Shown: positions 3,680-58,471 of the stretch, one piece after another | Numbering within the stretch: position 1 is the first letter of the stretch | Layout of the letters: every line of letters begins with the position of its first letter | Origin: Girardia tigrina | Lineage: Eukaryota | Length of the DNA: 64,000 nt | Direction: 5' to 3' | NCBI GenBank assembly: GCA_001938485.1 | Contig: MQRK01250243.1 | Location: 1-64,000, forward strand | Translations under genes and position numbers: made by a program | Notes under the pieces: model-generated | Told to the model about the DNA's origin: nothing | Seen by the model: only the letters and a program-made list of their open reading frames with translations | Database searches by the model: none

Positions 3680-3760
3680 TATTGCTATATGTGGGCCGCC
3701 TATCTCTTTCAATGCTATTGAGCCTAAGGCTCTTTAGAGGGTCCACCCAAACTAAAGTCC

Positions 3761-6700
3761 TTAAGGGCCCCCCGATAGGCCTCTTACGGGGTCAGTGGTC
3801 TTCCGCCTCTGAGTAGTCGTTTTGCCAGTTATAAACGACCAGCCATGGAACTTGTTACCATGGCCATATATACCTCTGGTTGTTACAGTGGACGCGTAAC
3901 AGCCGAGACATGGGCACTTGAACTCTCCTCTTGCTGTCGAGTAGTCGGCTGGCAGTCGGTATTGTAGGTGCGGCTCTTCTTTGGTATCGTCATTTGTCTG
4001 TATCCTCGCCATACTCACAGTTGCGTCCGGTAACTGAGATTTGGATTGGTTTGATGTCGGCTCTTCCTCGTTCTCTCTTTTCAAGTTCTCTTCTCTCTGA
4101 GCGTTGGATGTTGGCGGTTCTTGGTGATTCTTCTGAATTGACATACATTGGGCTTTCAAATCCAATAGATATCTCATCCATCCTGATTCTTTCAGCTTTT
4201 GATATCGACAGAGTTCAGCGAGTGCACAGATTGTGAAATGCTTTCAGCTTTTTCACGTGTGCTTCGTTTGTTCTCCAGTTTTCACAGCTGTAGTAAACCA
4301 CCGGGAATACACAGCTGTTAATTATGTTCTTCTTGTTCCGGAGAAACAGCTTGTTGTTCTTCAACACTGGTCTGATCGTTCGTAGTTTCGCTGTTCCTTT
4401 CTGAATCCTGACCTTGATGTCCGTACCTGAGTTCTCTCTACACTCAATTATCGATCCCAGGTAGCAGAATTCGTTCATCCATTCAATTCCTGCATTCAAC
4501 TTGTCCCTTGTCGTAATGTATTTTGCTCCATTCACATATTCGTGAACGCAGTGTTGAGAAACGTGAGATTTCTTTCGATGCTTCCAAAGTCCTCGTCCAG
4601 TAAGCACAGGTCGTTTGCATAAACAAGCCTGTTCACGGTCAGCTCTTCACCATTGTAGTTCAGTTTCACACCACCTGATAGTCCCTCTTTGATTGCGGTC
4701 TTAATTGCATGATCAAAGACAAGGTTGAATAATAGAGGTCCTAAAACGCAACCTTGGCGGACTCCTTTGTCCATTCTGAACTTATCCTTTCCTATGCTGC
4801 CCGTGAAACCTTCATGAAACTTCATGATAATGCTCAGCATCCGATCCTGTATTCCAATTCCTTGAAGGCAGTCCCAGAGAACTTTCCTGGGTACTCTGTC
4901 GAATGCCTTTTCAAGGTCGATAAAGATATCAAAAATATTTATATTTCGGTATCTGGCCTCTTCTTGTATCTTTCGTATGATACCTATTGCATGCGCCGTG
5001 CTTCTATTTGGTCTGAAACCAAATTGCCAGTCGTCCAGTATCCTTTCAAGATGTGGCATTAATCTATTTGCAATGATTCTGGCCATGATCTTTCCTCCAA
5101 CATCAAGTAGGAATATTCCTCTATAATTGTTTAGTTCCTTCTTGGACCCCTTTCCTTTGTATAGGATCACCACCTTCGCCGTTTACCAAGCCTCCAGGAA
5201 TTTCGCTCTTCCCTCTCATATGTCCACGAAACATTGAAGGATCTTTTCAGTTAACTAGAGACCGCCCCACTTATATAGCTCTGGAATAGGGTAGCCAGAT
5301 GTCCGGTTTTGAACCGGACAGTCCGTTAATTCAACTGGCTGTTCGGTTTAAAAATTATAAAAACCGGACTTACATTTGACGGTATTTCTCTAGAAGCTTA
5401 TTTCCAAAATCTTCAAATATGAGGTATTCGTATTTTTTTATTTTTTTGGTCGCTCAAAGTTTTGAAGGACAAATAAACATTCCTAAATGGTAATTTTTTT
5501 TATCGTAGTGGTCTATGGAAAAATTTATTTTAGTTTAATACGAAATACAAAATATTAAAGTATTAATTCAAAGTTTTCTGCTGGTGATAAAGGGATAAAT
5601 TAAATAATAAATTTTGTGGTATTTAGAGTTTGAACTATTAAGTGAAAAATTTAATATTAAATTTGTTTAAATAATAAATTTTGTCCGGTATTCTTCGAAG
5701 TTTCAACTGGCAACCCTACTCTGGAATGATACAGTTGTTTCCAGCAGCTGTACCGTTCTTCAGTTGCCTAATAGCGGTACTTACTTCTTCTACGTCCGGT
5801 GAGTAATCGATGTCTAGTGTTTGGCTCTGTTCGATATCCACGATACAATCTCTTTCGCTCTTCTTGAATAGATGTGAGAAGCGCTCTGCTAACACTTCGT
5901 CCTTCACACTGCGCTGCACAATACATAGGGAGGATTCCTTCGTTTCACTATTGCAGAGGACTCTGAGTTCCATGTATAACTCAAAGGTCTGGCTCATACA
6001 TTTTCTATTGAGAATACCTTCTATTTCTTGTCCGATTGTTTCAATCCTCTCTCTTTTTCACTTCCTTAGATGCCGCAAGGTGTTCAATCTTGAAGCCTTC
6101 CATATTGAATATGTCCTTTCATATCTATTCTGAATGTACTCCTTCCTCCGTTTCCCTTTCTCCTGCAGTAGTGGTTTCAGTTCTTCTAAGTGCCCGTGTA
6201 TCCATCTTTGATTGAGTGGGATTTACTTCTTTCGGTATCTTTCCGTGGTCTTTAAGATGATCTCTTCCAAGTCATCCTAATTCTCGACATTCGGACAAAC
6301 CTGCCTTATGTCACTACTGATTGCCACTTTGTTGTTCTGCAAGGAGAACCTGTCAATTTTCCCTTTACATTTCTTCTTTCTATCGTTTGCCAACTTGAGT
6401 ATTTTATTGTTGTTGGCGATCCATATCGTTAACACGACTAAATCATGGTCTGAGCCGCAGTTAAAATTTGGATAACTTTTGACGTTACTTATTCTGTTGC
6501 ATCTGCTCTTTTGCGACAGGAATAAGTCCAATAATAGCCTTTTCTTCGTTGCTGGGTGTGTCCAGCTAGTTTGCTGCGCCAACTTGTGTTTGTAGAAAGT
6601 GTTCTCTACTCGTAAGTTGCACGCGTCGGCCAGATCTATTAATAGACCTCCGTTTTCTGATGTTACTGTTTAACTAGTATAACACCCAAATGTTTTACCA

Positions 6701-7206
6701 TTTTCCTCCGTCCGATTAAGTTGAAGTTGATAGATGAAGTCACCTCCAACTATCACTTCGAATTTTCTCTTCTCAGTTTCAGCCGTCGCCCTTTCAACAT
6801 GTTCCTGCAATGATGCAAGGAACTCCTCCTTTTCCTCACTTGAGTATCCGCTTTCTGTCGGAACGTATACCCCACCAATGTGATCGACCTTTGGTGTATG
6901 TGACAGAGGAAAACTATCTCGCTGATCGCTTCGAATCCGATATTCATAGAATCTTTTGATTTTACCATCATGGCTACGCTTCTTTCTCTTGTGCTACTTG
7001 TTCTGCGACTATGATGGATCCTCCACTCCCCGAAAGAGGTAATATCGGTTCCAATCCAGTGCGTCTCTGTGAGTATGCACATATCGATTTTAAGTTTTTC
7101 AAAGATACTGGAGATGTTAAGTATCTTTTCGTCGGTCAAGCCTCTAACATTCCAAGTTCCAATCCTCAGTCCACTGCAAGTGGAATCCTTAACGAGGGAT
7201 CCCCTC
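3761..7206 (-). pseudogene. RTE APE-RT ORF, fragmented, with a C-terminal CxxxxC..H...H finger
   Basis: Collinear ORF pieces 6753-7280, 6277-6582, 5716-5997, 4532-5173, 4215-4607, 3761-4177. Confidence 0.85.
5287..5718. mobile_element. hAT MITE (Blackjack/Tip100-like ends) nested in the RTE LINE
   Basis: TIR TAGGGT(A/T)GCCAG; perfect 8-bp TSD CTCTGGAA at 5279-5286 and 5719-5726. Confidence 0.92.
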
Positions 7207-7219
7207 GGCATATCCTCGT

Positions 7220-7380
7220 AACAGTGAATTACAAAACAGCGAATTACAAAACAGCGAATCTCAAAACAGCGAATCATCAAAACAGCGAGTCATCAAAACA
7301 GCGATTCATCAAAACAGCGAATTATCAAAACAGCGAATCATCAAAACAGCGAATCCTCAAAACAGCGAATCTCATAACAG
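7220..7380 (+). repeat. Tandem array of 15-16 bp units (left MULE TIR)
   Basis: Repeated AAAACAGCGAAT core. Confidence 0.95.
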
Positions 7381-7660
7381 AGATGTACTATCCAAATAGA
7401 AAAAAAGTTAATTAGATATAAAATTTTATTTTAAGGAAATTCCAACTTTAAATACTTTGTCAAAATGCAATTGGTGTGTTTAAACTGAAAGAAATTCCAC
7501 GAATAAACTCCTGCACACCATCATCAAAACGCTGTTGTAATTTTGAAATACGTTCACTTATTGAATTATACTTTTTATTTTTGTTTGTTAATAACTTGCC
7601 CAGCATTAATTTGTGCCATCAATGTTTCTGTAAATCCTTGTTCCTTTCTTATACATGATA

Positions 7661-8014
7661 TTAAATCATAAATATTGGGGTGAAAGCTGGAAATATAGCG
7701 GAAGCTGAAGTATTACCAGAAATTTCAGCTGCCGCATCAGAATGTATAATCGGAATACTGCGCGCTTCTGTTTTTGCCTGTTGCTTCATCTTAGAAATAG
7801 TAGACTTTACGATACCGATTTCTGGTGTTGGTGGATGGGAATGCCCTTGTTTTTCAATTGGATGACAGTTATCAATATCTGACCAAAGTCTTCCTTTGCA
7901 ACCGATGGTACGACATCGCCAAATTTTTCTAATTGAGGTGACTGTATCTACACGGTAGGAATATCCTCCATAATTGCATGCTTCAGAACCTTTTTGAGTT
8001 GTTGATATTTCCAT
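7661..8014 (-). CDS. FLYWCH zinc-finger N-terminus of a MULE transposase (DDE core deleted)
   Basis: GYSYR...IWRC....CKGRL...HSHPP motif. Confidence 0.75.
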   Translation of the reverse strand: MEISTTQKGSEACNYGGYSYRVDTVTSIRKIWRCRTIGCKGRLWSDIDNCHPIEKQGHSHPPTPEIGIVKSTISKMKQQAKTEARSIPIIHSDAAAEISGNTSASAIFPAFTPIFMI

Positions 8015-8294
8015 TTAGTTTTTTCACAAGCAAAACTTAAAAATAATGTTATGAAAAAATCGAAAATTAAAACAACCTTTAAATTTTATTATTAATAAAA
8101 TATATTTAAAAAATTATATCTTAAAAATATCTTATTAATATAAATATTCTCTTATTTAAATGACAAAAATCTCATTTTAAAATAAAAAATATCTTAATAT
8201 AAAAAATCTTATTAATATATCTTAAAAATATCTTATTAATACAAATATTCTCCAATTTAAATGAAAAAAATCTCATTTTAAAATGAAAAATTTC

Positions 8295-8557
8295 ATTCGC
8301 TGTTTTGTGGAATTCGCTGTTTTGATGATTCGCTGTTTTGATGAATCGCTGTTTTGGAATTCGCTGTTTTGAGAATGCGCTGTTTTGTAATTCGCTGTTT
8401 TGATGATTCGCTGTTTTGATGATTCGCTGTTTTGATGAATCGCTGTTTTGTAATTCGCTGTTTTGAGAATGCGCTGTTTTGTAATTCGCTGTTTTGATGA
8501 TTCGCTGTTTTGACATTCGCTGTTTTGGGATTCGCTGTTATGTAATTCGCTGTTTTC
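8295..8557 (-). repeat. Tandem array of 15-16 bp units (right MULE TIR)
   Basis: Repeated ATTCGCTGTTTT, the reverse complement of the left array. Confidence 0.95.
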
Positions 8558-8672
8558 GGGTATAACCTCCCCCTCTCGGGAGCTTAATGACTTCGGGTCC
8601 TGCCAAACCCCTAGTTGGAGTTTTGAAAGCTGTGTACTAGCGAAAGACAGAGTTGCTAGTCCCGTCGATCCA

Positions 8673-8784
8673 TCCACTCATTTAGCCTAGATCAAGGGGA
8701 ACCCTATCTATTTCTAGAAAGGGGAGGAGACTCTCTTTCTAGTTCCCAGGATACACCACGGGGAGGCCAGCGACTTTGTATTGC
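8673..8784 (-). ncRNA. Candidate HDV-like self-cleaving ribozyme at the RTE 5' end
   Basis: P3/L3 GCC-UCCCCGU-GGU, P1' GUAUCCU, P1.1 GG, GAA, P4 CUAGA..UCUAG, J4/2 GCUAAAU, P2 UCGCU/AGUGG. Confidence 0.7.
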
Positions 8785-8791
8785 TATCTGT

Positions 8792-9780
8792 AATTAACTT
8801 ATCACCTTTATTTTCATCTTTATTGATAACTTTTCCTTGATTGTTTTGAACGTAATTAGAATTTGAAAAATTAATTTTTCTTTTTTGCTTCTTTTTTACG
8901 TTCTCCCAACCATTATCTTCTTCAATTGAGTTATTTATTATAAAATCATTTAAAAGTAATTCAAAAATTTTGTTTTTCAATATAGAAAATAAAGAATTAT
9001 AATTACTTTCATCAAGTTCAATTAATTAATTTTTATTAAATTCTATATTATATTAAGTTTTAAAGAATTTACTTGATATAAAATTCATAAATATTTCGAG
9101 AAAAAATTCATCGAAAATCTTTTCAAAATTTCTTTTATTTTTTCTACTAAAATTTTTTTTATTCAATTCAATCCATTAGTTAATTTTTCATTTATAAGAT
9201 ATTTATTATCAATATTATTTGTTAAAAAATTATTTACAAAATTTATATCAGCATTATTGTTTTCGATGAATTTATTCGTGAATTTATTAAAGATATTTTT
9301 ATTAATAAATTCGATAAATAATTGAAGAAACTTATCGTCAATTAATTCAGATAGAATATTACTTTTATCTATAGAAAAATTTACATTAAAGTTATAAAAA
9401 GTTTCATCCAAATCATTGGTATTATTATTAGTTAATATATTTATTGATTTTTTAACCAAATTATCGATACTTCTCTCAATCGATTCGGTAACTTTTCCTT
9501 CATCAATCTTCGGCAGATGGGTGTCATTGAATTCGCTTCGTGACGCTGATCCTGGATTAGTATTTTTTTCTTTAATGCTTTATTTTTCTTCATTTCAATT
9601 TTAGTTGATTTTTCGATAATTAATTTCACACTTTTCTCGATCAATTCAGCCACTTTTTCTGCATTAATCGGCGGCGGAGGAGTATCATTGGATGTGGCTC
9701 GTCGCGTTGATTCCGAATCAGTTATTTTTTCGATAAACTCCAAGAATTGGAATTTTTTCAATCATCTGGTCGGCATTAAT
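8792..9780 (-). pseudogene. 5' N/K-rich ORF part of the RLE non-LTR element split by the RTE LINE
   Basis: ORF pieces 9441-9761, 9163-9459, 8714-8980; frame ..KLITDSN continues as NNLVKINKK across the RTE TSD. Confidence 0.55.
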
Positions 9781-10665: not shown

Positions 10666-11325
10666 CTAAAAAATTAATTCTACCTGTTGGCCAAGATTGA
10701 TTTGCTTTTTGAGTTTATTGATTTCAGCGGTCAGGAGCGCGATCTCGGTGGCGTAGGATCCGGAATTTGAAATTGTCTCACTCGAATAGATCGCAAGTGG
10801 AACTTTGATATTCAACAGATCATCGGCTAAATATGCCAATTTCGTCAGCGAGAGTGCTTTTTGGATATTCAGGAGTCTTTGGACATCGGTCGGCATTGCA
10901 CGAAAAAATGCGGTCCGCAAAATATTGTCATCGCTGCTTGTGGTGCCCAGGCAACGGTAGTGTCGCTGCAGGATTCTCAGATATTCTGAGGGGCGGCGGT
11001 CGCCAAGATTGTTGTTGCTGAATATTTCATCGAAATGGACTGAGACTGGAACTTTGCGACTGGTGATAATCGCATACCGAAGATCAGAGAACGGTGTTGC
11101 GGAATTTGATTCGAAGAATTCTTGGAACTCCGTTAATATCTGAGGAGACAGATTCGCAGTAAGATGCAAAAATTTAGTCTGTTCCGTGGAGATGTTGGAA
11201 ATTCGGAATATCACATCGATTTGCTTGAACCAGAGCTCAATATTGTCGAAGATTGGAGGAATTTTTGGGCTTGCGTGGTTGCACTCAAGCGAACCACTTC
11301 TGACACCATTGTAATCTTCTTGCAT
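10666..11325 (-). CDS. Stand-alone Gypsy-type gag capsid protein, 219 aa
   Basis: LWFKQIDVIF..TKF..L..LGDRRPSEYLR..LRTAFFRAMPTDVQRLL..LAYLAD is a Gypsy gag signature; ORF intact; no pol, LTR or PBS seen nearby. Confidence 0.75.
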   Translation of the reverse strand: MQEDYNGVRSGSLECNHASPKIPPIFDNIELWFKQIDVIFRISNISTEQTKFLHLTANLSPQILTEFQEFFESNSATPFSDLRYAIITSRKVPVSVHFDEIFSNNNLGDRRPSEYLRILQRHYRCLGTTSSDDNILRTAFFRAMPTDVQRLLNIQKALSLTKLAYLADDLLNIKVPLAIYSSETISNSGSYATEIALLTAEINKLKKQINLGQQVELIF

Positions 11326-12341
11326 TATTTAAATATTTGTTATTTAAATAGACAAAAGAAAACGAGATTTTAAAAATATATTATAGACAAAATCTATCGA
11401 TTTAAACAATCGATAAAAAAATCATTATTTTTAATTTAATAATAATTAAAAATCATTATTTTTAATTCAACAAAAATTGAATTAAAAATAATTTATTGAT
11501 GAAGTAAAGTTGTCACTTTACAATAAGCAAACAAATTTTTTAATTATAATTAACTTTTATAATCATTTAATTATAAATTTTAATTTGAGGAACAATCTTT
11601 TTCTAAAATTTGTTAATGTCAAACCGGAAAATTCTAATTTTAATTTATTCTTAATTTACTTATAAAATTTAATTTTTCATGATAAATTTTAATTTAACTA
11701 ATTTAATTACTAACTAATTCTAATTTCAATTTATTCTTAATTTATTTATAAAATTTAATTTCTCGTTATAAATTTTAATTTAACTAATTATTTTATTCTT
11801 CATCCAATTATTAAATTTAACTCTATCTTATTTAAATTTTAATTTACTTAATTTATTCTTATTTCTTTTTTGTTCTATTCTCGTCAATGTTATGCAAATA
11901 ATCTCATCTTGCATTTCCACTCTAACTTACAAATTTTCTTCTAATGACTTACTCCCTAACATATATAATATAAATATGGATTCCAAATATTCTTATAAAA
12001 TTCTCTTGAAAACCGATTTGCTTAAATATTCTAAAGGCGCAAATTTTGAATTATTAAATAAAATCTTGGTGGAATCACTTCGTTCTCATTTATCATGGAA
12101 ACTCCTTAAATGGCGACCACAGCCAGTATTATCAACAATCTGACACTAAAAATATTCGACTGATGCGAGGACGTGGATCAATTCGTTGCAAATTGTTAAA
12201 AAATTTTCAAATCGCTGAAATCAACGAATCGATTCATTCAATGATGGTGAAAGCATTCATCAGAAGGATTTGCTCGCAACATATGAAGCCTTCGATGAGA
12301 TGATCACCAGTTTTGCCGACAGATTGAGGAAAGCTTTCAAG

Positions 12342-12974: not shown

Positions 12975-14910
12975 CAGTGTCTACTCTCTCATCCGCCAAA
13001 AATGGGACTTTACAAAAATGTGGCGGTTGAGAGAAAATAAAGAAAATAAAATAAAAGACAAAGTTTATTTTTTAATTAACCAATCATCCAACGTTGATTT
13101 TTTCTTACTGTTTTTTAAAGCCTTACTAATTTCATTAATACCAATCGCTGCATTTGGGTCAAAGAGTCCTTCTTAATTAAAATAGTCTTTTATCACTTGA
13201 AAAGCACTGTATACTTCCTTTTTAGTAACTTTTTTCCATTATTTCTTGATCTTCTTCATCATAAACTACATCATAAACTTCACCATTTATACTATTATCA
13301 AGAGAAATATTGTTTTCTTCGTCTGTAATGCTCAACATCACGTCTGTTTCATCAAAATCCAGCTCTTTAAACTTTTTTTCATCAATAGGATCCAAAATAT
13401 TAGTTTTCAGTATAAATTCATCAAATACATCAACTGCGTATTGATCTTTTATTTCTATATCTTTTGTTTCCCAATACCAATTAGCATGTTTAAAACAATT
13501 TGCAATTGTCGAAGTTGTTAATTCATGCCAAGCAAAACTTATCCAAACTACTGCATCTTATATTGTAAGTTTTATGTAAGAATCAAAAACATTACATCCA
13601 CTTTCAACTTTTTCAATAATATCGGACAGTTTTTTATTGGTAAAAATTGATTTAAAACACTTTATCACTCCTTCATCTAACGACTGTAGCATTACTGTTA
13701 AATTTACTGGCAAAACAAAATTTCTATGGATTTTAAATCAATATCAACACGATGTGACGGACAATTATCAATAACCAATAAAATTTTTGTTCTTGTCTTC
13801 CAAAGTTCTAAATCCCATTCCAACAGCCATTTATTAAAAATTGCGGCTGTCATCCAAGCTCTTGATGAATTTACATATTTTACATATGTCTCAATAGGAA
13901 ATTGCTTAAAACAACGTGGTTTTTTAAATTTCCCGATGACTACAGGTTTTGACTTATTCTTTCCCGTCATATTTGTACACAAAAGAACAGATATTCTATC
14001 TTTCAATATTTTATACCAGCTTCTCACATTTTTACACAAAGTTTTAGAAGGAATGAGTTTATAAAAAATGCCAGTTTCATCGGCATTGTATACATTATCC
14101 GGACCATAAGAACGAATTTTACTATTTAAAACATTTAAAAAATCTTCATTATTTGGAAGTGCTGTTGGAAAAGATTCTCCATGTAACTTCCTCAACTTAA
14201 GTTCATGTCTTGCTTTGAATTTTAGCAGCCATCCAACTGATCCTTTGAAGTCCATAATATTTTGAGTCTTTGCAATCGATAAAGCTTTGTTTATTAATAT
14301 GCTGTCATTAATTATTCCACCCGCAGAATCAATAAAGTCTATCCACGCAGATAATTCCTCGTCTATTTTTCCATATTTTAATATCGGATTGCGATATTTA
14401 TCCTTTGATTCTAAATTCACATTTTTTAATAAATCGTCTTTCTTTCTTTTTAAATCATTGATCGTCCTTCGAGAAACTTATTTTTTAAATTTATGCTCAA
14501 TCATGGACGCAATTTGATTGTCTGTTACGTGTGGATTTGCGTCACAATACCGTATAATTTCGATTTTTTCACTGATTGTAAGTCTGACACATTTTCTTTT
14601 GGATATGTTATTCATGGTCAATTTTGTCAATTTCCTTGATTTTTAAATTCGCAATTAATTGATATTTATCTGATATTTAAACAATAATTGATATTTAAAA
14701 GCATGTATTTTTCTAAATTAAACACTTTCTAAAATTATCTCATTTTAAATCTGAAAAAAAAATCAATTTTGTATCCCCTGATTCATGAGTTTAAGAAAAA
14801 AATGGCGGTTGAGAGAAATTGGTGGTTAGGAGAATTTTTCCTAACTAATACATGAGATTTTATAAAATCGTGTCGGTTGGTAGAGTTGGCGGTTCAGGAA
14901 GTAAATGTTG
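12975..14910 (-). mobile_element. pogo/Tigger DNA transposon with a CENP-B-type transposase pseudogene
   Basis: ATG at 14615; HTH, GSVGWL..FK.RH, YNADETG, DNCPSH; degenerate 25-bp TIRs, TA TSD; gag frame resumes after it. Confidence 0.9.
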
Positions 14911-56190: not shown

Positions 56191-57689
56191 AATATTTAAG
56201 AAATATGCATATAAATCTGCTAAAAAGTTAATAAAGTAGCTCTATTAAGACGTATTAGTGCTGTAGCTAGTGACATTTAAAATCAATATATCACAAATGT
56301 TTAAGATGTATTAATTACACTTGGAATCCACAAATCTTGATTGAATGTCCATGTTATTTGAATTCAAAAGATAAAATTTCAATGACACTAGTCACAGTAT
56401 AAACTGTGGCAAAAGTTAAGAAGGTTTTAAACAATTTGCAACTACTCAATGTTTGCTTTAGTAGCCAAAACGTCCTTATCTTCATTTTTAAAAAAAGCCA
56501 TAGATTAGACAGTTTAGGTTGGTAACGTTTTATCTTGCATTATCATAAGTTCTTTGTCGTTTGGTCAAAATGAAAGAGTTGAATTCGACTTCTTATCGTA
56601 AAAAATGAAACTCTGGATTTTTTGTACGTGAAAATTATATTTCGACTCTTTTATTCAACGTAATATATTTTTTTAAGATTCCAAAGAAGAACTAGATTAA
56701 GAATAATCTATTCACATTCATATCTGAAAGCCAAACTTGAAGTTTCGAATACCAGTCTTTTGTGGAACGAGTATTTCAAACGATATAAAATGACCCTTTG
56801 TCAGCCCTTCCAAATTGCATCACTTACCCGTGAGAATCTGGTTTTTGCTCAAATATTCAAACACCAACAAAATATCGCATTAAGTTGGATGTAGAGCTAA
56901 AAAATAATAATTCAATTATCTGAAATAAAGGCCTTTTTTATAAATTGTAAAAAAATGTAAATAGGAAAGTTTTAATTTAATTAAATAAGTAATATTTTGC
57001 TCGAATTTTAAACTTTTTACCATATTATTTATTGAATATCATATGTGTTATAACTTCATTTTAATTATAATTATGCCAATGTATTTTAAACGTATTCGCA
57101 AATTTTTCGTATGGTTTAAAGGGTTCCATGATCAAAAAAGATGAGAACTTCAGCATCAAATAAATTAATTTAAAATATTATAAATAGTAATCTTTTATTT
57201 ACTTTTTTCACAGTTGTACTAATTTTTAATTTAATATTTTATAATTTAATCAGTGGATAAGAAATAAATTTAGATTATTCAACAAGAATTGTGAAAAAAA
57301 AACGTTTTTCCATTCTTTTTATTAGCTTACTTTCTATGTATCCGTGTAATTTAGAAACCTGTTTTTGAAGGCTTTTTACTTAATCAAATTTCTTCAAACT
57401 TTGCACACTTACTCATTTTCGATGACAATAAATGATTATGTGAAAAGCCGATCAAAAAAACTTTTTAGGGTCTCAGAATTGGGGAAAAACGGTCTCATCG
57501 AAGTTCTTGAACACTATGAAATGAAAAAGATCTACTTATAAATTATAAGTAGTTTATATCATTTATTTATAATTTAAATTTTAATATTACGCAAAAAATA
57601 AAATTGAAAAATAAATAAAGTCCAGTAAACCGATTTAAAGTCTAACTATTAAATCAAAAAAAAATATTTAAAAAAATATATAAAGATCA

Positions 57690-58471
57690 TGGAGACCAAT
57701 AGCCCTGATGGAATGCATTACCAAGTTGTCCACATCTTGCCTATGCACTCAACTGGAACAATGGCTAGTGAAGAACAATTTAATTTCAAAGTTCTAAAAA
57801 GGCATCGGACCATCGGACGGATGCGCTGAACACAATAACGTCATGAGAATTTTAATGGAGGAATATAAACATCTTCACATTGCATTCCTTGATCTAACTG
57901 ATGCGTTTGGCAGCATTCCAATTAATCATATATTAGAAGTTCTCAGAAGAAAAGGTCTAAACTCATTCTCCTGCTCTCTCATTCCAAATCTGTACTCGGA
58001 TTGTTCATCAACCTATAACTGCAATGATTGTACGACTGAAGACGTATCAATCAGGAGGGGGTTAGACAAGGATGTCAGCTTTCAATGCTGTTGTTCAGCA
58101 TTGGCATTGATCCAATTTTGGCTGGACTACAAGATAATGATGCATTTTGTATTGACACTGAGTCTGGTAAGATTACTTGTCTGGCATATGCAGATGATAT
58201 TGCACTAGTTGCAACCAGCAACTCTTGGTTACAAGCCATGGTTTCATCTGCATGTGACATGGTTGAATGGACTTCTTTGAAGTTCAACCCAATCAAATGT
58301 GGATATTTATCAACTCCTCTTATGAATGAATCAATCTACATTAATAACATACCAATACATATAGTAACAGATGAAGGAGGTTACAGTTATCTCGGAGTAG
58401 ACTTTACCAGTAAGACAAAATTCACTCCTGAACGCCTATTTCTATCAGCTATTAAGGACTTGAAAAAATAA
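57690..58471 (+). pseudogene. Isolated RT domain of an R2/NeSL-like non-LTR element
   Basis: WRPIAL, AFLDLTDAFGSIP, GVRQGC (frameshifted), LAYADD, KFNPIKC, YSYLG. Confidence 0.85.

Follow-up and report, generated by a model that had tools for sequence, protein, structure and literature searches.

The minus-strand feature at 8670..8784 of the 64,000-nucleotide stretch of Girardia tigrina DNA analysed here (the window) is best read as the broken 5' end of an RTE-type non-LTR element, in a family whose HDV-like ribozyme is predicted to free the RNA immediately before its first nucleotide (G1), with the window copy having apparently lost its first three Gs through a join at an ATA match. We give this reading a probability of roughly 0.8. 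RTE 5'-end ribozymes and microhomology junctions are already published biology, and neither the ribozyme nor the clipped junction comes as a surprise; what the family adds beyond known biology is its target signature, a concentration of insertions at one site of a Penelope-like element and a stop codon in its leader.

The element (3693..8781, minus strand, ~5.1 kb) contains an APE endonuclease, a reverse transcriptase (RT) and C2H2 fingers and is ~92% identical to full-length copies, which are 3.8 kb elsewhere in the genome. It is damaged by frameshifts, stops, a ~510-nt deletion near 4140 and two nested TIR insertions: one at 7205..8567, with AAAACAGCGAAT subterminal repeat arrays and a FLYWCH fragment, which we take to be MULE-like, and a short one at 5288..5718 (430 bp, 8-bp TSD), which is presumably hAT-like. 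The coding layout is a single ORF with APE, RT and three C2H2 fingers (Pfam Exo_endo_phos and RVT_1); no ORF1 was found, nor any Pfam match to RNase H in the element. The 120 RT matches listed are mostly proteins of ~1000 aa, many of them with DUF6451 and one named CFDP2, and human L1 RT is far more distant (E 2e-24). We take the motif signatures to be those of RTE elements, and the nearest RT matches have what we take to be an RTE-like layout. In the RT tree the family falls within a zinc-finger lineage of 31 proteins (support 0.989); given that this tree holds no labelled RTE, Vingi or Ingi references, assignment to the RTE type is likely rather than proven. Three internally deleted copies that keep both ends (about 0.2, 0.9 and 2.2 kb; loci L061, L034 and L058) are candidate non-autonomous derivatives.

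The surroundings of the element hold other mobile sequences. Its flanks (9579-2126, minus strand) resemble a decayed LINE of the RLE type that shares its strand with the insertion, a call that we base on motifs near 2126-2600 which we take to be a zinc knuckle, RHN and part of a nuclease; a Pfam search of these flanks gave no match. A Tc5/pogo-type transposase fragment (DDE_1, HTH_Tnp_Tc5) and a DUF7041 gag-like fragment lie at 13704-14477 and 10666-11328, both on the minus strand, and a second, distant RT fragment lies at 57687-58210 on the plus strand.

The first-pass annotation had proposed an HDV-like nested double pseudoknot at the element 5' end, and its segments were found where it had placed them, on the minus strand from 8784 to 8672. 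The P1 5' strand (8778..8784), whose partner is P1' (8754-8748), is damaged by two mismatches: 8784-8782 are target DNA in place of the family GGG, element-derived sequence starts at 8781, and both mismatched letters (C and A) lie inside the duplicated target, as had been claimed. The 7-nt P2 5' strand (8768..8774) is followed by P3 and L3 (8755..8767; P3 8767-8765/8757-8755, L3 8764-8758, the latter with U 8764, the P1.1 CC 8763-8762 and G 8759). Beyond P1' come the P1.1 GG (8747-8746), the P4 base helix (8687..8742; 8742-8738/8691-8687), which encloses a variable insert with a GAAA-capped hairpin, J4/2 (8680..8686) with its predicted catalytic C at 8685, and the P2 3' strand (8672..8679) with a bulged base at 8675. 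At 7 nt, J4/2 is longer than that of HDV. P2 had been described as pairing at five of six positions; the mismatch is real but private to the window copy, where a C-to-G change at 8768 breaks the pair adjoining P3 (33 of the 34 subfamily-A copies scored have C there), and the six-pair register was wrong, the family P2 being 7 bp with a bulge. Over its first 47 positions, the window copy departs from its own subfamily at 2, 3 and 17. Given that these changes break P1 and P2, it is probably inactive as a ribozyme; P1 mismatches are linked to activity loss in PMC3774820.

A search with HDV-like Rfam models, suggested as a check on the fold, had a divided outcome. The window copy scored at chance level (18.3 bits and E 0.85 with RF02682; E 7.2 with RF00094), and an intact family copy reached E values of 8e-4 and 4e-3, respectively, but stayed under the gathering thresholds (29.1 vs 44 bits for RF02682 and 31.7 vs 50 bits for RF00094). 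The family has the same fold as RF02682 and RF00094 and is a member of neither as curated.

Comparisons among copies bear out the P1 and P2 pairings of the annotation. Across 39 young, BLAST-found copies, P1, P2, P3, P1.1 and P4 were paired in 94.4% of cells, compared to 31-52% in slid controls, with 96.5% for P3 and 89.7% for P1.1; no compensatory change was found in these copies. A hand-picked alignment of 27 copies spans all four subfamilies (A-D), and in it the 7-bp bulged P2, which crosses P1, was 97.9% paired and had two compensatory pairs (U-A to C-G and C-G to U-A), a score that none of 500 shuffles reached; the 6-bp register was rejected, as its score was reached by 500 of 500. Both compensatory changes come from subfamily D only (4 copies) and thus may be one lineage event, and P1, P3 and P1.1 had no compensatory change in the 27-copy alignment. 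P1 (7 bp, with a purine-U/C pair at position 1) was 92.6% paired in the 39 copies and 96.8% in the 27. The catalytic C in J4/2 was found in 79 of the 82 scorable copies (7 of 89 were skipped) and the following A in all 82. Conservation of the core letters in subfamilies B-D is circular, because those letters were fixed by the search patterns; the catalytic C was not fixed. A G of P1.1 is replaced by A in three of the four subfamily-D copies, and a subfamily-D copy with a 28-nt deletion in P4 (L146, whose flank is common to L147 and L155) retains the core and the P4 base in register. Nested MFE folding, for which a pseudoknot is beyond the method, did not favour the fold in four of five copies (z 0.2 to -0.9), and P1 was present in only one of the five structures. 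A covariance model that was run on the window and two metagenome loci matched only the window copy, its own source; since the metagenome scan for closer relatives returned only two loci, at 28-31% identity, there is no cross-species covariation.

The start of the family was defined from many copies. The DNA search gave 41 matches from 40 scored candidates, and the core pattern matched 418 times compared to 0 for the reversed control. Among 69 5'-complete copies, 48 start with GGG, ten with xGG and seven with xxG, and four have none of the Gs. A start of GGGATAC or AGGATAC had been predicted, and the family indeed starts with GGGATAC: of 53 distinct flank clusters, 39, 44 and 49 have G at positions 1, 2 and 3, and after G the most frequent letter at position 1 is A. 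This start is exactly the cleavage site placed by P1, as predicted from P1'. Upstream of G1 no letters are held in common except a T at -1 (34/48). At one shared, T-free target with 43 junction records, this T is missing from all 12 blunt junctions, in which a target G abuts GGG, and it is thus not element-encoded; an element-encoded T before G1 is ruled out by these junctions. The other junctions at this target contain microhomology or extra letters, often T. Three Gs are kept in 28 of the 43 records, two in 10 and one in 5, and junctions that are clipped by a few nucleotides at a microhomology form a regular, if less frequent, class in the family. Short duplicated pieces of the target or of the element start were also noticed at the 5' junctions of four copies (L130, L129, L186 and L045), which suggests template jumps during joining. 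Three further loci (L051, L162 and L163) are head-to-tail copies, in which one 3' end directly or nearly adjoins the next G1; the predicted ribozyme would separate such tandem units.

The 3' ends of the family are GGCCC, followed by AC in 16 of 21 distinct flanks. Both junctions were available for 22 copies, of which 19 were kept (one duplicate site and two copies without a convincing TSD were dropped); TSDs in the family are 10-14 nt long. GTG is found at -14..-12 in 13 of the 19 TSD-anchored sites, compared to a background of 0.5%, with T at -1 in 15 and A at +1 in 18 of them. Independently of the TSD, 28 of 53 flank clusters carry GTG-N11-A just upstream of G1, compared to 4.6% for control windows, and when A[CT] is required the spacer peaks at 11 (24/53), with 3-12 for other spacers. 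The split target signature is GTG-N11|AC. No enrichment of the extended motif GTGTNAAAANNNNTAC was seen in the window, where it occurs 5 times compared to 3.2 expected when 1 mismatch is allowed. For the window copy, it had been claimed that the TSD cuts inside P1 and shares ATA with the element. An exact repeat, ATAGCAATA at 8787-8779 and 3688-3680, does overlap the ATA, but the full TSD is likely longer, at 13 nt with one mismatch (8791-8779/3692-3680): the 5' copy (8779..8791) ends in the ATA common to the element, the 3' copy (3680..3692) directly follows the element end GGCCC, and the GTG (8803..8805) lies at -14..-12 from the TSD start.

The shared target lies in another repeat. Its empty form has 698 exact matches as a 32-mer and 2234 as an 18-mer, and its translation contains a CxxC-YIG motif downstream of a RYVDD reverse transcriptase (RT upstream in 4 loci). 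Penelope-like elements are defined in PMC8557442 by an RT followed by a C-terminal GIY-YIG domain with two Cys between GIY and YIG, and the host repeat fragments fit this definition. Pfam gave only a weak GIY-YIG match in one of two host-repeat fragments (E 0.009) and none in a further Pfam run; Atlas leads for the repeat are HTH_animal and GIY-YIG. The GTGT overlaps the host Cys codon, the TSD begins within the Tyr codon of YIG, and the insertions are in the host sense orientation. As judged from its sequence, the site is a near-perfect match to the target signature. The 5' flank of L058/L059 resembles the CxxC-YI motif of a second Penelope-like family, which suggests that insertion is not confined to a single host family. 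The window copy, for its part, lies outside the Penelope-like host.

The joined site and element start matched 138 times, compared to 380 exact matches to the element start (~36%); the two patterns are exact and non-nested, and some duplicate contigs are included. All 29 joins that were pulled as loci continue into the element, and in a flank-blind sample 12 of the first 30 core matches are at the Penelope site. The share at this site varies by subfamily (B 21/37, A 4/37, C 1/11, D 0/4). Filled sites (e.g., L171-L199) and empty sites (e.g., L165-L170) were both recovered. Given that about a third of intact starts are at one codon, the family is likely a parasite of the Penelope-like element. 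It is possible, though we consider it unlikely, that the excess is real and yet only reflects an endonuclease that prefers a short motif found in an abundant repeat, without any dependence on Penelope. Copies elsewhere predominate in subfamilies A (33/37), C (10/11) and D (4/4), and the score of the Penelope site in the off-target matrix is close to the maximum; however, this matrix, which was made from 17 other sites and ignores dependence between positions, predicts a Penelope share of 0.2-1.8% vs about 36% overall and 21/37 in subfamily B. Thus, the short motif alone does not seem enough for about a third of intact 5' ends, and the likeliest extra factor may be host read-through at the RNA 3' end that pairs with the nicked target.

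The insertions at the Penelope site look independent. That the excess instead reflects one or a few amplified composite units, or over-representation in the assembly, is improbable. The commonest junction class does account for 12 of 43 records, the assembly is fragmented with duplicate contigs, and pairs with the same junction are slightly closer in their host flanks (0.074 vs 0.112). The filled sites nevertheless fall into 22 junction classes in 43 records and 3 subfamilies, host and insert haplotypes are uncorrelated (Mantel p 0.70; 28 of 33 records usable), inserts with the same junction are not closer (0.147 vs 0.122), and the off-target motif matches the Penelope site at conserved positions. 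Amplification of a single composite was rejected on the junction diversity together with the lack of haplotype correlation. A literature search, with most subscription papers, Repbase/Dfam and supplements (which may hold target-site logos) outside its scope, found no RTE element targeting Penelope-like elements and no GTG-N11 signature.

The cycle that we propose would begin with transcription of the copies by read-through from host transcription units. The ribozyme would free a 5'-OH RNA beginning at G1 from the upstream co-transcript; the protein would bind GTG and nick 11 nt downstream at T|A, where the RNA tail ACA(U) could pair with the target to prime synthesis. The RT may then run off at G1, often adding an untemplated A that is seen as T before GGG, and the cDNA end would be joined blunt or by 1-3 nt of microhomology. 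A copy at the Penelope site (Cys to Tyr codon, GIY-YIG) would profit from the transcription of its host and carry a matching read-through tail at its 3' end, in a feedback akin to that of rDNA-targeting elements; the proposal of host-driven transcription is weakened by the many host Penelope copies that are 5'-truncated. The junctions fit the published model (PMC3774820), in which elements that are cleaved at their own 5' end prime the second strand by means of chance microhomology and untemplated bases.

That the RNA was ribozyme-processed, as the first-pass annotation proposed, we infer from genomic sequence, and an internal promoter starting at G1 is the alternative. Such a promoter would set the family start and leave the HDV-like fold as a relic or with a role in translation or protein binding only, which we think hardly probable. 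In L1Tc the same first 77 nt are promoter and ribozyme (PMC3383444; PMC4035085), and genomic junctions cannot separate a start site from a cut site. Against it, the family begins at the very nucleotide where P1 places the cut, compensatory change has preserved the P2 helix and the catalytic C is retained.

The claim that the cDNA was joined about 3 nt short agrees with the family start of GGG, the absence of the three Gs from the window copy at its ATA microhomology and the place of such clipping among the normal minority junctions; the window copy likely lost its first three Gs through cDNA joining at the 3-nt ATA match. Later decay, in the form of a GGG with two substitutions or of a 9-nt TSD with ACAT as element tail, is very improbable: the copy is ~8% diverged, the 13-nt TSD has one mismatch and the element tail can add AC, but GCAATA is exactly repeated at the 3' junction, so that the C and A at the 5' end are target letters, and with the 13-nt reading GTG falls at -14 and the nick at T|AC, as in 13/19 sites, with the ATA microhomology unchanged even by the 9-nt reading.

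Analysis of the leader revealed a 14-codon upstream frame (8637..8681, minus strand) that begins with an AUG in J4/2-P2 (8681-8679), ends at a stop (8639-8637) and is in frame with the EN-RT frame. In the main subfamilies no other in-frame AUG precedes the endonuclease; in subfamily D another ATG lies four codons past the stop. The stop at codon 15 is present in 46 of 47 in-frame copies (22 frame-broken copies were dropped), as TAG or TAA depending on the subfamily, and is seen in all four subfamilies. In the database, the proteins of two intact relatives (87% and 79%) are annotated as beginning at an internal Met and at a Leu, which would agree with the lack of a Met before the first motif. 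Downstream there is an in-frame CUG that has G at both -3 and +4, and the stop is covered by a short hairpin. Our preferred reading is that the ORF starts by reinitiation or at a non-AUG codon after the short upstream ORF; read-through of the leader stop is possible, and a 2A-like skip signal was rejected, the leader having no NPGP. The joint reading, which includes a protein made without a canonical start from an RNA with a ribozyme AUG and then a conserved in-frame stop, is tentative, at somewhat under even odds. In RTE-1 of C. elegans, a short ORF reportedly precedes a main ORF that has no Met before its endonuclease. The family resembles RTE-1 in this arrangement and differs in that its short ORF begins in the ribozyme, is in the same frame and has a conserved stop. 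A role for HDV-like ribozymes in cap-independent translation has been proposed (PMC6765202). This leader stop was not found reported in the literature covered, with most subscription papers and supplements again outside the search.

More than 100 apparently independent insertions at one known target make a natural experiment on how predicted ribozyme-defined 5' ends are joined, with blunt, microhomology and untemplated-T outcomes on show. GTG-N11|AC carries the RTE split-signature model to a new motif and bears on the site preference of APE elements; RTE and Vingi proteins are under development as gene writers and at present integrate broadly (PMC13708176). If the preference is true, a LINE that preferentially disables the endonuclease of another retroelement would be a clear case of element-on-element targeting. 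With a conserved stop after the ribozyme AUG, translation of uncapped, ribozyme-cut RNAs becomes directly testable.

HDV-like ribozymes have been described at the 5' ends of RTE, R2, R4 and L1Tc elements (PMC3774820; PMC6765202; PMC4035085). The family shares with them the nested double pseudoknot, a 7-bp P1 with a G1.U wobble, a 3-bp P3, a 7-nt L3, a 2-bp P1.1 and the J4/2 C, together with predicted cleavage at the first element base and variable junctions with microhomology and untemplated bases. It differs in its bulged 7-bp P2, a 7-nt J4/2 that carries an in-frame AUG, scores under Rfam gathering and an activity that is predicted. The insertion signature known for RTE elements, Tn-(~10)-TA, is likewise split, and its upstream part is a run of T (PMC6007223; PMC13295347). 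Similar to that signature, the recognition motif of the family precedes a T|A nick by roughly a helical turn, the TSD is ~10-13 bp and its first base matches the element tail; the family differs in having GTG(T) upstream instead of the T run. In contrast to these elements, the family has no long microsatellite tail and is strongly concentrated on one site in another element. Frog Tx1 is said to insert into a DNA transposon. The Tx1 group is target-specific (PMC3747384), and R2 inserts in 28S rDNA (PMC3774820). The family resembles such site-preferring elements in its repeated, oriented insertion at one position of a multicopy host unit, and R2 also in predicted ribozyme release from a co-transcript. 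Compared with R2 and Tx1, the family is of RTE-type APE rather than RLE or L1/Tx1 affiliation, its host is a Penelope-like endonuclease motif and its specificity is partial.
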